From NCBI RefSeq assembly GCF_044324785.1, contig NZ_CP172127.1: DNA of 64,000 bases, one strand, 5' to 3'. The notes under the pieces are model-generated. The model did not search any database. It saw only the letters and a list, made by a program, of their open reading frames with translations, and was not told the origin of the DNA. The translations under genes were made by a program, and so were the position numbers. This DNA is from Escherichia coli. GTDB taxonomy: Bacteria > Pseudomonadota > Gammaproteobacteria > Enterobacterales > Enterobacteriaceae. Positions 1,394 to 37,967 of the stretch are shown here, piece by piece (positions within the stretch are counted from its first letter, which is position 1; each line of letters opens with the position of its first letter).

Positions 1394-2266
1394 ATGCTGG
1401 CGTTTACCTGGATCGCGCTGCGATTTATCCATTTCACCTCGCTGATGCTGGTTTTTGGCTTCGCAATGTACGGTGCCTGGCTGGCCCCCTTAACGATTCG
1501 TCGCTTGCTGACGAAGCGTTTTCTGCGTTTACAACAGCACGCTGCCGTCTGGAGTTTGCTCAGTGCCACTGCAATGCTCGCCGTTCAGGGCGGGTTGATG
1601 GGAACGGGATGGACAGATGTATTTTCGCCAAACATTTGGCAGGCTGTTTTGCAAACGCAGTTTGGTGGCGTCTGGTTATGGCAAATTGTTCTCGCCCTCG
1701 TAACGTTGATCGTCGCCCTTATGCAACCGCGGAATATGCCACGTTTGCTGTTTATGCTCACTACCGCGCAATTTATTCTGCTGGCGGGAGTCGGGCATGC
1801 GACGCTGAATGAAGGGGTAACGGCGAAAATCCATCAGACTAATCACGCGATTCACCTGATTTGTGCGGCGGCGTGGTTTGGGGGATTACTGCCGGTGCTC
1901 TGGTGTATGCAACTCATCAAAGGCCGTTGGCGACACCAGGCTATTCAGGCGCTGATGCGTTTTTCCTGGTGCGGGCATTTTGCGGTGATCGGCGTACTGG
2001 CAAGCGGCGTTCTTAATGCATTGTTGATTACCGGATTTCCCCCCACGCTTACGACTTACTGGGGCCAACTCTTATTGCTCAAAGCTATCCTGGTGATGAT
2101 TATGGTGGTCATCGCGCTGGCTAATCGTTATGTTCTTGTACCGCGCATGAGGCAGGATGAAGATCGTGCGGCTCCCTGGTTTGTGTGGATGACTAAACTC
2201 GAATGGGCGATAGGTGCGGTAGTGCTGGTGATCATCAGCCTGCTTGCGACTCTCGAACCTTTTTGA
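1394..2266 (+). CDS. yebZ: CopD-family inner membrane protein YebZ
   Basis: 290-aa polytopic hydrophobic ORF immediately after yobA; length and sequence match YebZ. Confidence 0.9.
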   Translation: MLAFTWIALRFIHFTSLMLVFGFAMYGAWLAPLTIRRLLTKRFLRLQQHAAVWSLLSATAMLAVQGGLMGTGWTDVFSPNIWQAVLQTQFGGVWLWQIVLALVTLIVALMQPRNMPRLLFMLTTAQFILLAGVGHATLNEGVTAKIHQTNHAIHLICAAAWFGGLLPVLWCMQLIKGRWRHQAIQALMRFSWCGHFAVIGVLASGVLNALLITGFPPTLTTYWGQLLLLKAILVMIMVVIALANRYVLVPRMRQDEDRAAPWFVWMTKLEWAIGAVVLVIISLLATLEPF

Positions 2267-2278
2267 TGGATTACGAAA

Positions 2279-2620
2279 ATGATGAAAAAAAGTATTCTGG
2301 CGTTTCTGTTACTCACCAGTTCTGCAGCGGCGCTGGCTGCACCGCAGGTGATTACCGTCAGCCGTTTTGAAGTGGGTAAAGACAAATGGGCGTTTAATCG
2401 CGAAGAGGTGATGCTGACTTGCCGACCGGGTAATGCTTTGTATGTCATTAACCCAAGTACCCTCGTGCAGTATCCGTTAAACGATATTGCACAAAAGGAA
2501 GTCGCCAGCGGGAAGACTAAAGCCCAGCCCATTTCGGTGATTCAGATTGATGATCCTAACAATCCCGGCGAAAAAATGAGTCTGGCACCGTTTATAGAGC
2601 GAGCTGAAAAACTCTGTTAA
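2279..2620 (+). CDS. yebY: DUF2511 secreted protein YebY
   Basis: 113-aa [23 protein letters not shown]... with signal peptide; third gene of yobA-yebZ-yebY. Confidence 0.85.
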
Positions 2621-2650
2621 TTACCTAAAATAGCCTTTTGATTTCCAATA

Positions 2651-2690
2651 AAAAACCGCCTCAGCTCTTTCACCAGAACGGGCGGTTTTT
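2651..2690. terminator. Bidirectional intrinsic terminator (yebY on +, RyeA on -)
   Basis: aaaaaccgcc...ggcggttttt: GC stem flanked by A-tract upstream and T-tract downstream, so a U-run follows the hairpin on either strand. Confidence 0.5.
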
Positions 2691-2763
2691 AACATTTAAG
2701 CTGATGACCACCGCGCTTTTTATTGACCATTTTGCACGCAAACTGGAAAACCTGGCGTCGTCA

Positions 2764-2774
2764 TCTATTCTTAA
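2764..2774 (+). promoter_or_regulatory. Sigma-S type extended -10 element for sdsR
   Basis: TCTATTCTTAA matches the RpoS extended -10 consensus (TCTATACTTAA) at 10 of 11 positions, placed to start transcription at about 2778. Confidence 0.5.
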
Positions 2775-2777
2775 AGG

Positions 2778-2881
2778 GCAAGGCAACTAAGCCTGCATTA
2801 ATGCCAACTTTTAGCGCACGGCTCTCTCCCAAGAGCCATTTCCCTGGACCGAATACAGGAATCGTGTTCGGTCTCTTTTTA
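2778..2881 (+). ncRNA. sdsR: sRNA SdsR (RyeB), RpoS-dependent
   Basis: Sequence GCAAGGCAACTAAGCCTGCATTAATGCCAACTTTTAGCGCACGGCTCTCTCCCAAGAGCCATTTCCCTGGACCGAATACAGGAATCGTGTTCGGTCTCTTTTT recognised as SdsR; ends in hairpin CCGAA..TTCGG plus T-run; about 104 nt. Confidence 0.7.
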
Positions 2882-3014
2882 TCTGTTAAAAGCCAGAAGC
2901 ATTCCCTTCGCTGACTTTATAGTCAACCATAACACACACTCTACTGTCTGAGTCCAGCGTTTTTTAACATTCTTGTTAAGATTATGTGATCTTTAGCGCG
3001 GGAGGAAAATATTG

Positions 3015-3671
3015 ATGAAACAGCCTGCGCCCGTTTATCAGAGAATTGCGGGTCATCAATGGCGACATATCTGGCTTTCAGGCGATATACACGGTTGTCT
3101 TGAGCAGTTGCGCCGCAAATTATGGCATTGTCGTTTTGATCCGTGGCGAGATTTACTTATCTCAGTGGGAGATGTTATCGATCGTGGGCCGCAAAGTTTA
3201 CGTTGTCTGCAGTTACTGGAACAACATTGGGTTTGTGCGGTAAGAGGCAATCATGAACAGATGGCGATGGATGCGCTGACATCTCAGCAGATGTCTTTGT
3301 GGTTGATGAATGGCGGCGACTGGTTTATTGCGCTGGCAGATAATCAACAGAAACAAGCGAAAACGGCGCTGGAAAAATGTCAGCATTTGCCCTTTATTCT
3401 TGAAGTACACAGTCGCACCGGCAAACATGTTATTGCTCATGCCGATTATCCAGATGATGTTTATGAATGGCAAAAGGACGTTGATTTGCATCAGGTCTTG
3501 TGGAGCCGCTCGCGATTAGGTGAACGCCCAAAAGGGCAGGGAATTAAAGGTGCTGATCATTTCTGGTTTGGTCATACACCGTTGCGACATCGCGTGGATA
3601 TTGGCAACCTGCATTATATTGATACCGGTGCTGTCTTTGGGGGCGAACTGACTCTTGTGCAATTGCAATAA
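3015..3671 (+). CDS. pphA: Serine/threonine protein phosphatase 1 (PrpA)
   Basis: Track ORF 3012..3671 (219 aa) with the second Met giving 218 aa, MKQPAPVYQRIAGHQWRHIWLSGDIHG; calcineurin-like phosphoesterase signature GDxxDRG present (GDVIDRG). Confidence 0.9.
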   Translation: MKQPAPVYQRIAGHQWRHIWLSGDIHGCLEQLRRKLWHCRFDPWRDLLISVGDVIDRGPQSLRCLQLLEQHWVCAVRGNHEQMAMDALTSQQMSLWLMNGGDWFIALADNQQKQAKTALEKCQHLPFILEVHSRTGKHVIAHADYPDDVYEWQKDVDLHQVLWSRSRLGERPKGQGIKGADHFWFGHTPLRHRVDIGNLHYIDTGAVFGGELTLVQLQ

Positions 3672-17723: not shown

Positions 17724-18392
17724 TCCTTCCTCAATCTTGAGTAACCCCGTCGTTGAAGGGTTACTCAATTCATCCTGATTATACGCACTGCCATGGTGCA
17801 ACTGCTTCAAATTAAAACTCTGGTCTGACTTCAAATAATTATCATATTATTTATTTGCGTAACGGGATATCAGAAAAAGATATTTAGCCCATTAATTTAT
17901 TAGGATGTTTACATCGGATTTGTGATTAAGTGTGGTATTATTTATTAGCGAAACGTTTCTCTCTTGATTTTTTTGCGCATTCATCAATTTTTCTTATTTT
18001 AAATTTACAATACCTTTGGCGATTGACTTCTCTTTGGGGTGATTGATAGCCGTTAACTGACTGTTTTATGAGAAAAAGTGATATAACTTTTTATTCATTG
18101 CATAGCAGAAAATGTGATATTGCACGCACTATGTAATAACTTCTCCCATTGGCCTGGAACAACTGAACTTATTGAACTATGTTAGAAAATACGTCAGTTT
18201 AAGTATCTGCCTGAACTGGCAAGGTTAAGCACAATGATATATCGGCGCGTATTCCGTTGCATAAGTGTGCAAAAAAAGTGGAAGACGTATCGAGATTTGT
18301 GCGTCTGATCGAGACATGTTTAAAAATGGCTTGCCATAATTAACGTTGTATGTGATAACAGATTTCGGGTTAAACGAGGTACAGTTCTGTTT

Positions 18393-18536
18393 ATGTGTGG
18401 CATTTTCAGTAAAGAAGTCCTGAGTAAACACGTTGACGTTGAATACCGCTTCTCTGCCGAGCCTTATATTGGTGCCTCATGCAGTAATGTGTCAGTTTTA
18501 TCTATGTTATGCCTGCGGGCGAAGAAAACAATCTAA
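18393..18536 (+). CDS. yobF: Small protein YobF (47 aa), co-transcribed with cspC
   Basis: Hand translation [47 protein letters not shown]; stop 12 nt before the cspC start. Confidence 0.8.
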
Positions 18537-18548
18537 GGAATTTTTCAA

Positions 18549-18758
18549 ATGGCAAAGATTAAAGGTCAGGTTAAGTGGTTCAACGAGTCTAAAGGTTTTG
18601 GCTTCATTACTCCGGCTGATGGCAGCAAAGACGTGTTCGTACACTTCTCTGCTATCCAGGGTAATGGTTTCAAAACTCTGGCTGAAGGTCAGAACGTTGA
18701 GTTCGAAATTCAGGACGGTCAGAAAGGTCCGGCAGCTGTTAACGTAACAGCTATCTGA
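18549..18758 (+). CDS. cspC: Cold-shock-family protein CspC
   Basis: 69-aa [72 protein letters not shown] with RNP1/RNP2 motifs. Confidence 0.95.
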
Positions 18759-18803
18759 TCGAATCCACTGATCTGAAGTGTGAATACGCTTCAATCTCGC
18801 TAT

Positions 18804-18830
18804 AAAGCCTCGTCGAATGCGAGGCTTTTT
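18804..18830 (+). terminator. Intrinsic terminator after cspC
   Basis: aaagcctcg-tcgaatg-cgaggctttttt hairpin plus T-run. Confidence 0.8.
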
Positions 18831-18923
18831 ACTTTGCTTTCTCTTCGCTCCAGTCGTTCGGATATTTGCCCGCCGCGTGATTCGCGTTACACTTGCGGCC
18901 TTTAGTATCCTGCCGGAGTTGTC

Positions 18924-36236: not shown

Positions 36237-37922
36237 TTGAAGAAGGTTTGGCTTAACCGTTATCCCGCGGACGTTCCGACGGAGATCAACCCTGACCGTT
36301 ATCAATCTCTGGTAGATATGTTTGAGCAGTCGGTCGCGCGCTACGCCGATCAACCCGCGTTTGTGAATATGGGGGAGGTGATGACCTTCCGCAAACTGGA
36401 AGAACGCAGTCGCGCGTTTGCCGCTTATTTGCAACAAGGGTTGGGACTGAAGAAAGGCGATCGCGTTGCGTTGATGATGCCTAATTTATTGCAATATCCG
36501 GTGGCGCTGTTTGGCATTTTGCGTGCCGGGATGATTGTCGTAAACGTTAACCCGTTGTATACCCCGCGTGAACTTGAGCATCAGCTTAACGATAGCGGCG
36601 CATCGGCGATTGTTATCGTGTCTAACTTTGCCCACACTCTGGAAAAAGTGGTTGATAAAACCGCCGTTCAGCACGTAATTCTGACCCGTATGGGCGATCA
36701 GCTATCTACGGCAAAAGGCACGGTAGTCAATTTCGTTGTTAAATACATCAAGCGTCTGGTGCCGAAATACCATCTGCCAGATGCCATTTCATTTCGTAGC
36801 GCCCTGCACAACGGCTACCGGATGCAGTACGTCAAACCCGAACTGGTGCCGGAAGATTTAGCTTTCCTGCAATACACCGGCGGTACCACTGGTGTGGCGA
36901 AAGGCGCGATGCTGACTCACCGCAATATGCTGGCGAACCTGGAACAGGTTAACGCGACCTATGGTCCGCTGTTGCATCCGGGCAAAGAGCTGGTGGTGAC
37001 GGCGCTGCCGCTGTATCACATTTTTGCACTGACCATTAACTGCCTGCTGTTTATCGAACTGGGTGGGCAGAACCTGCTTATCACTAATCCGCGCGATATT
37101 CCAGGGTTGGTAAAAGAGTTAGCGAAATATCCGTTTACCGCTATCACTGGCGTTAACACCTTGTTCAATGCGTTGCTGAACAATAAAGAGTTCCAGCAGC
37201 TGGATTTCTCCAGTCTGCATCTTTCCGCAGGCGGAGGGATGCCTGTTCAGCAAGTGGTGGCAGAACGTTGGGTGAAACTGACTGGACAGTATCTGCTGGA
37301 AGGTTATGGCCTGACCGAGTGTGCGCCGCTGGTCAGCGTTAACCCGTATGATATTGATTATCATAGTGGTAGCATCGGTTTGCCGGTGCCATCGACGGAA
37401 GCCAAACTGGTGGATGACGACGACAACGAAGTACCACCGGGTCAACCGGGTGAGCTTTGTGTCAAAGGACCGCAGGTGATGCTGGGTTACTGGCAGCGTC
37501 CGGATGCTACCGATGAAATCATCAAAAATGGCTGGTTACACACCGGCGACATCGCGGTGATGGATGAAGAAGGATTCCTGCGCATTGTCGATCGTAAAAA
37601 AGACATGATTCTGGTTTCCGGTTTTAACGTCTATCCCAACGAGATTGAAGATGTCGTCATGCAGCATCCTGGCGTACAGGAAGTCGCGGCTGTTGGCGTA
37701 CCTTCCGGCTCCAGTGGTGAAGCGGTGAAAATCTTCGTAGTGAAAAAAGATCCATCGCTTACCGAAGAGTCACTGGTGACTTTTTGCCGCCGTCAGCTCA
37801 CGGGCTACAAAGTACCGAAGCTGGTGGAGTTTCGTGATGAGTTACCGAAATCTAACGTCGGAAAAATTTTGCGACGAGAATTACGTGACGAAGCGCGCGG
37901 CAAAGTGGACAATAAAGCCTGA
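36237..37922 (+). CDS. fadD: Long-chain fatty acid-CoA ligase FadD (TTG start)
   Basis: Track ORF 36171..37922 trimmed to TTG-initiated (M)[25 protein letters not shown]... (561 aa); AMP-binding motif [11 protein letters not shown] present. Confidence 0.9.
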
Positions 37923-37940
37923 GCGTTAAGTCAGTCGTCA

Positions 37941-37967
37941 GACGCCGGTTAATCCGGCGTTTTTTTT
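37941..37967 (+). terminator. Intrinsic terminator after fadD
   Basis: acgccgg-ttaat-ccggcgt hairpin followed by TTTTTTT. Confidence 0.85.

Follow-up and report, generated by a model that had tools for sequence, protein, structure and literature searches.

The stretch of Escherichia coli DNA analysed here, 64,000 nucleotides of contig NZ_CP172127.1 (assembly GCF_044324785.1) and called the window in the following, contains between yebY and pphA a spacer that is crossed by an open reading frame of 63 amino acids, and the question arises whether this spacer encodes a small protein or RNA and, in the latter case, whether one strand is used or both. Our analysis leads to the answer that the yebY-pphA spacer is almost certainly the known E. 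coli SdsR/RyeA locus, with two small RNAs encoded on opposite strands of the same DNA. The anatomy of this locus, i.e., its identity, promoters, terminators and conservation, was established at the sequence level. Positions 2200-3400 of the window comprise the end of yebZ/copD (at 2266), yebY, an intergenic region of 394 bp and pphA, and the yebY-pphA region is in reverse orientation relative to K-12. On the plus strand, yebY (2279-2620) is an open reading frame of 113 amino acids whose counterparts in K-12 and strain MEI003 bear the annotation yebY, and the downstream gene pphA (3015-3671; phosphoprotein phosphatase 1) was identified from its open reading frame and from annotation. When complete E. 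coli genomes were searched with a 301-bp query of the locus, matches of at least 95% identity were obtained in 5425 out of 5426 genomes, and chance can therefore be excluded as an origin of the features of this locus.

A single complete E. coli genome of this set lacks the locus. In total, the 301-bp query matched 5663 places in the 5425 genomes, including one on a plasmid, and in a few genomes the match was split between two places or a second partial copy was present, which suggests occasional insertions or duplications at sdsR/ryeA (compare hit H23, NZ_AP027783.1). Over the 1.2 kb of positions 2200-3400, identities of at least 99% to the window were observed in only three of the 5425 genomes, with strain MEI003 as the best match (99.1%); the remaining genomes showed 95-99% identity and SdsR itself was unchanged. 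Elsewhere in the window, two other Rfam families gave matches above their gathering scores, namely the cspA thermoregulator family at 18373-18833 (plus strand; 139.7 bits) and the small RNA sroD at 37881-37966 (plus strand; 115.2 bits). Matches to sR35 and sR23 at 467-515 were dismissed as chance, as their E values were 0.4-0.7 and their scores far below the gathering scores of these archaeal snoRNA families.

SdsR and the reading frame that crosses it

On the plus strand, the Rfam family RF00111 (SdsR_RyeB) matches positions 2781-2880 over the full length of its model (1-100) with a score of 114.4 bits (gathering score 38) and an E value of 2e-22. Similarly, the annotated sdsR gene of K-12 (b4433, 104 nt) is identical to window positions 2777-2880 in 104 out of 104 nucleotides. 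The ends of the K-12 transcripts have been mapped by primer extension, 5'/3' RACE and in vitro transcription (Choi et al., 2019; PMC6610125). That study placed the sdsR start one nucleotide past the annotated 5' end, at what is the G of window position 2778, and 3' ends of SdsR were found at +100 to +102, corresponding to window positions 2877-2879 within the T-run 2876-2880. From the Rfam match, the identity with K-12 and the mapped K-12 ends, SdsR (RyeB) is placed at 2778-2880. A previous sequence-only reading of this DNA had drawn SdsR from 2778 to 2881; according to the mapped K-12 ends its start is exact, and its end lies 1-4 nt too far, position 2881 being the A after the T-run. The RNA folds with a minimum free energy of -34.8 kcal/mol (z -4.4). 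Its start at 2778 lies downstream of yebY, which ends at 2620, and yebY is a conserved neighbour, with a YebY homologue upstream of the SdsR core at 109 of 121 loci among the matches listed.

The promoter in front of SdsR consists of a -35 element TGGAAA (2744-2749, plus strand) and, after a spacer of 16 bp, of the extended -10 element TCTATTCTTAA (2764-2774, plus strand), in which the hexamer TATTCT occupies 2766-2771 and the C at -13 is position 2765. Fröhlich et al. (2012; PMC3333887) described -13C, -14T/G, -8C, an A/T-rich discriminator and the 16-bp spacer as the features that give the sdsR promoter its selectivity for sigma-S. All of them are found in the window (T2764, C2765, TATTCT, C2770, TAA at 2772-2774 and the -35 element at 2744-2749). 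In K-12, a change of TATTCT to CTCGAG with the primer PM_SdsRR abolished SdsR, and SdsR was the only product when transcription was performed in vitro with sigma-S holoenzyme (PMC6610125). For the study of conservation, a genome collection was scanned with an SdsR-core pattern, yielding at least 120 loci, and 109 distinct promoter sequences were aligned. Among the loci listed, -13C, -12T, -11A and -7T were present in all 109 distinct enterobacterial sequences, -8C in 107 and the start G in 108 of them. In the same 109 sequences from the loci listed, columns 2744-2746 and 2749 of the -35 region were invariant, columns 2748 and 2750 were conserved to at least 94%, and conservation in columns 2700-2740 amounted to just about 35-70%. 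TATTCT at 2766-2771 is a -10 element of the sigma-S type, and the features of PMC3333887 together with the invariant core bear out the RpoS-type extended -10 that had been read in front of SdsR. By analogy with Salmonella and E. coli K-12, for which sigma-S dependence of SdsR has been demonstrated (PMC3333887, PMC6610125), this promoter would be used by sigma-S also in the present strain. From Salmonella and from the identical K-12 sequence, SdsR is known to accumulate in an rpoS-dependent manner in stationary phase, to bind Hfq and to repress in trans (PMC6610125, PMC3333887).

At its other end, SdsR is provided with its own Rho-independent terminator at 2846-2880 (plus strand), as had been proposed. 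Terminator scan and folding revealed an 11-bp stem (2846-2874) with a 7-nt loop, followed by CTTTTT, and a folding energy of -15.8 kcal/mol on the plus strand. In 105 sequences from among the loci listed, compensatory double changes were detected for five of the 11 stem pairs. On the minus strand the same hairpin reaches only -11.1 kcal/mol (z -1.7), and what follows it is CAGGGAA and no U-run. The SdsR terminator works in one direction only and, since its reverse form is weaker and lacks the U-run, RyeA is able to read through sdsR. When transcribed in vitro, both SdsR and RyeA end by Rho-independent termination (PMC6610125).

In K-12, pphA mRNA originates from the sdsR promoter by read-through of the SdsR terminator, and sdsR and pphA are co-transcribed (PMC6610125). 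The spacer between sdsR and pphA (2881-3020, plus strand) was considered as the site of a structured attenuator or of another terminator, and this was rejected, the fold of this segment being no better than that of shuffled sequences (z -0.64). A promoter-like sequence, CTGAAA-16 nt-TAAAAT, was noticed at 2604-2631 (plus strand), about 175 nt ahead of the start of SdsR, where it spans the last yebY codons and the first bases past the stop codon; transcripts from this site would run straight into the yebY terminator. An older report, as it is taken up in PMC6610125, assigned a heat-shock promoter of pphA to roughly this place, and in PMC6610125 this site is disputed as the source of pphA mRNA.

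The open reading frame of 63 amino acids (2723-2914, plus strand) begins with TTG and lies inside ryeA. We read it as a mechanical open reading frame and as non-coding, in agreement with the earlier view that it falls within an RNA locus. That this or another short open reading frame codes for a real small protein, so that the locus would be dual-function or a misannotated protein gene, is hardly conceivable to us, even though three E. coli, namely the window, K-12 and one more, keep the frame open over 68 codons, and even though an open reading frame of at least 50 amino acids in the same frame extends across the SdsR core at 41 of 112 loci among those listed. The ends of the frame are common only to the three E. 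coli examined (the window, K-12 and locus L038) and vary in nearly every genus. An in-frame TAG is located inside the 5' stem-loop of SdsR in Salmonella, Citrobacter and Klebsiella, other stops occur in Serratia and Yersinia, and from genus to genus the C-terminal tails show no relationship; in the cross-genus comparison the frame is thus broken or re-bounded outside E. coli. The segment of "protein" that is shared is the invariant RNA core in translation, with the same degree of fixation at all three codon positions. The TTG precedes the SdsR start by 55 nt and lies just past the yebY terminator, and no Shine-Dalgarno or other purine-rich site was found upstream of it. The deduced sequence had no match in Pfam and NCBIfam, no CDS is annotated at this place in K-12, in MEI003 or in the eight E. 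coli genomes listed, and a small protein in sdsR was not reported in the titles and abstract openings obtained by a full-text literature search. Two further short open reading frames, at 2638-2790 (plus strand) and 2670-2786 (minus strand), were rejected as genes, having no match in NCBIfam. In the E. coli genomes inspected, the annotation of the NCBI pipeline leaves the sdsR/ryeA stretch empty, and automatic tracks therefore tend to show only mechanical open reading frames there. A genome annotation should show two non-coding RNA genes at 2648-2918 and omit the 63-amino-acid reading frame.

RyeA and the terminator behind yebY

On the minus strand, the ryeA gene of K-12 (b4432, 272 nt) aligns colinearly to window positions 2648-2918 (271 nt), with four substitutions (at K-12 RyeA +15, +206, +221 and +255) and a terminal U-run of six instead of seven residues; the U-run that is shorter by one could slightly change the efficiency of termination. 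For K-12 ryeA, three adjacent starts were reported, of which the most downstream is the mature 5' end and corresponds to window position 2918 (PMC6610125). The 3' ends of K-12 RyeA, at +263 and at +269/+270, coincide with the end of the hairpin stem and with the last U, respectively, or about position 2650 in the window, and in vitro RyeA of about 270 nt is formed via Rho-independent termination (PMC6610125). According to the K-12 alignment and the mapped K-12 ends, RyeA (SraC) is placed at 2648-2918 on the minus strand, with a length of 269-271 nt. The antisense RNA that the sequence-only reading had drawn at 2645-2915 is indeed RyeA, with both ends shifted by 3 nt. Complementarity with SdsR extends over RyeA +39 to +141, and sdsR (2778-2880) is located wholly inside RyeA.

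The start of RyeA is preceded on the minus strand by the sigma-70 extended -10 element TGTTATGGT at 2926-2934, composed of TGT and TATGGT, with the hexamer at 2926-2931 and the TG at 2933-2934. In K-12, RyeA was lost when ACCATA (as read on the plus strand) was converted to CTCGAG with the primer PM_RyeAF. In vitro, sigma-70 holoenzyme produced almost only RyeA and was the only holoenzyme to transcribe ryeA (PMC6610125). Neither of the -10 hexamers confirmed by mutagenesis in K-12 is altered in the window, nor are their surroundings.

The Rfam family RF00101 (SraC_RyeA) matches 2740-2884 on the minus strand with 175.1 bits (gathering score 37; E value 4e-41). However, this model of 145 nt is mostly a mirror image of SdsR plus its promoter, and it also scores above threshold (47-53 bits) on the strand opposite to SdsR in Shewanella and Paraglaciecola, at loci that give no other sign of a RyeA. 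For these reasons, the RF00101 match alone is not independent evidence of an antisense RNA, and the identification of RyeA rests on promoter, start site and terminator instead. One might go further and take the minus-strand hit, which covers just the overlap with SdsR and the promoter, for nothing but the mirror image of SdsR, with no RyeA being made in this organism. We regard this as very improbable, since the validated ryeA -10, the start site and the terminator are all present and are identical or nearly identical to those of K-12.

The symmetric intrinsic terminator behind yebY (2650-2690, both strands) is formed by A6 (2650-2655), CCGCC (2656-2660), a 20-nt loop, GGCGG (2681-2685) and T5 (2686-2690). 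The A/T tracts on both sides of the hairpin, which had been noticed earlier, are accompanied by stable folds on both strands, with -15.6 kcal/mol (z -5.0) on the plus strand and -20.0 kcal/mol (z -4.7), followed by U6, on the minus strand. By analogy with K-12, where 3' RACE and in vitro transcription locate the end of the transcript (PMC6610125), it is supported that RyeA ends at the reverse-read yebY terminator, as had been suggested for a minus-strand transcript reading through the locus. The "shared bidirectional terminator" of the sequence-only reading is appropriate for the yebY/ryeA hairpin as far as RyeA is concerned. It is yebY and ryeA, not sdsR and ryeA, that share it, and yebY mRNA would stop at this hairpin (2650-2690), judging from its position 30 nt past the stop codon. 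The ryeA promoter, the read-through from sdsR into pphA, transcriptional interference and the type VIII toxin-antitoxin class are absent from that reading.

The antisense unit in other bacteria

A survey of the antisense unit was based on 104 enterobacterial loci with sufficient flanking sequence, among the loci listed. Of these, 63 possess an equivalent hairpin with A-run and T-run after yebY, and 51 show, downstream of sdsR, an extended -10 motif that reads in the antisense direction. Two unrelated types of this -10 were encountered among the loci listed: type A, TGnTATGGT, at 26 loci, including E. coli and the window, and type B, TG[GA]TATAA[CG], at 25 loci, including E. albertii, Salmonella arizonae and Klebsiella oxytoca (for example L005, L091, L078, L079, L055 and L065). 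In a reverse-complemented control, antisense motifs were found only three times. Among the loci listed, the symmetric yebY terminator was present at 50 of the 51 motif-bearing loci and antisense motifs were found at none of the 40 loci without the terminator (Yersinia, Serratia, Rahnella, Dickeya, Brenneria and others), a co-occurrence that is confounded by phylogeny, both promoter and terminator being traits of the Enterobacteriaceae. The single motif-bearing locus for which no terminator was called has an interrupted A-run, which was missed by the rule. The antisense -10 of E. coli is located roughly 20-40 nt nearer to sdsR than in most other genera, in agreement with the SraC of Salmonella being about 35 nt longer (PMC3333887).

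Such a distribution might mean that ryeA is a later, Enterobacteriaceae-specific add-on around a much older sdsR, which together with its sigma-S promoter reaches Shewanella and Paraglaciecola, that its antisense promoter arose anew or was exchanged on at least two occasions and was co-selected with that half of the yebY terminator which faces in reverse, and that convergent transcription is conserved and not the sequence of RyeA. We put this forward tentatively, as a reading that may well turn out otherwise. It concerns the family rather than the window and was partly anticipated by PMC3333887, where sraC was found to be poorly conserved and its -10 displaced.

Some observations concern the DNA downstream of sdsR. 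The motif GTCCAGCGTTTTTT in the spacer is conserved among loci with a type A antisense promoter. The sequence GTCCAG(C/G)GTTTTTT, located at 2948-2966 (plus strand), which in the antisense direction is 15-30 nt ahead of the ryeA -10, is kept in the aligned loci with an E. coli-type promoter, i.e., in E. coli, several Citrobacter, Enterobacter cloacae, Atlantibacter and Pseudescherichia. Its role may be that of a -35/UP-like element serving ryeA, or of a signal in the pphA leader. At the loci L005, L091, L079 and L055, a partial second copy of the 3' arm of the SdsR terminator with its U-run (GTATTCGGTCTTTTT) is situated about 55 nt downstream of sdsR. In these type B loci the copy looks like a duplication remnant or a back-up terminator, and it is absent from the window.

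Outside the Enterobacterales, SdsR homologues occur in five Shewanella and one Paraglaciecola among the matches listed (L025:9643-9745, L044:9565-9667, L056:2041-2143, L059:12361-12463, L110:4103-4204 and L100:11011-11110). In these RNAs the 3' two-thirds are conserved and the 5' end is different, and no yebY homologue adjoins them. The five Shewanella loci are preceded by C+TAYACT, corresponding to a -10 element with C at -13. All six homologues reach the gathering score of RF00111 and therefore fall within the known family.

Proposed operation of the locus and comparison with known systems

Given identical or near-identical sequences, expression, sigma-factor dependence, mutual degradation and targets are expected to be in this strain as they are in K-12 and Salmonella. 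In stationary phase or under stress, sigma-S RNA polymerase would start at 2778 from the TATTCT/-13C promoter. The product would be an Hfq-binding SdsR of about 100 nt, stopped by its own hairpin and U-run, and a fraction of the SdsR transcripts would continue into pphA. During growth, sigma-70 RNA polymerase would start on the other strand at 2918 from the extended -10, cross all of sdsR and its promoter and stop at the reverse yebY terminator, giving rise to RyeA of about 270 nt. RyeA would hold SdsR down in two ways, one of them being convergent transcription that interferes with the sdsR promoter, and SdsR would act in trans on targets such as the mRNAs of tolC, mutS, yhcB and ompD. Through this locus, pphA as well as genes of the outer membrane, of efflux and of mismatch repair are tied to the sigma-S stress response, as is already established.

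A different view is that ryeA acts mainly by convergent transcription, on the sdsR promoter and on the read-through into pphA, in which case RyeA would be no sequence-specific antitoxin and the toxin-antitoxin label an over-interpretation. In K-12, transcription of ryeA reduces transcription of sdsR and pphA in cis and RyeA supplied in trans has no effect on pphA (PMC6610125), and the change of SdsR in the absence of SraC is just about 1.5-fold (PMC3333887). Moreover, the RyeA-specific sequence beyond the overlap is poorly conserved (columns 2700-2740, about 35-70%), and the antisense promoter occurs in two unrelated types at variable distances, as would be expected if only the direction of transcription were selected. 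Nevertheless, we consider this view unlikely, although it is one to be taken seriously. Over-expression of either RNA leads to faster degradation of the other, and in a ryeA promoter mutant SdsR appears earlier in growth (PMC6610125). Interference and RNA-level mechanisms can coexist, and both transcriptional interference and mutual RNA degradation have been reported for K-12 (PMC6610125). We prefer the reading in which RyeA would restrain SdsR by both routes.

Type VIII toxin-antitoxin systems combine an RNA toxin with an RNA antitoxin, and SdsR-RyeA and creTA are their founding examples (TADB 3.0, PMC10767807). The type VIII layout according to TADB 3.0, overlapping RNAs from opposite strands, is what is found in the window, where SdsR (2778-2880) lies within RyeA (2648-2918). 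In K-12, growth inhibition by SdsR was reported to be neutralised by RyeA (Choi et al., 2018, as cited in PMC6610125). The toxicity of SdsR is known from over-expression, and the type VIII label would in the present case serve as a classification. Whereas creTA is linked to CRISPR-Cas, SdsR-RyeA is not and constitutes a core chromosomal locus.

Bidirectional intrinsic terminators between convergent transcription units have been described genome-wide in E. coli. They are composed of an A-tract, a GC-rich stem and a T-tract and are stable on both strands, and the same is true for the yebY-ryeA hairpin. The latter differs in that a non-coding antisense RNA makes up one of its convergent units, and termination on its yebY side is presumed from position.

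The closest comparison is with K-12 itself. With respect to sdsR (ryeB, b4433; RF00111), the RNA is identical and the sigma-S promoter, the terminator and the place downstream of yebY are the same; differences exist only in flanking bases and none within the RNA. With respect to ryeA (sraC, b4432; RF00101), the start, the extended -10 TGTTATGGT, the full overlap with sdsR and the reverse yebY terminator are the same, and the gene of 272 nt with U7 in K-12 compares with 271 nt, U6 and four substitutions in the window. The SdsR/RyeA pair is already known, and its representative in the window is an ordinary one with no unusual feature.
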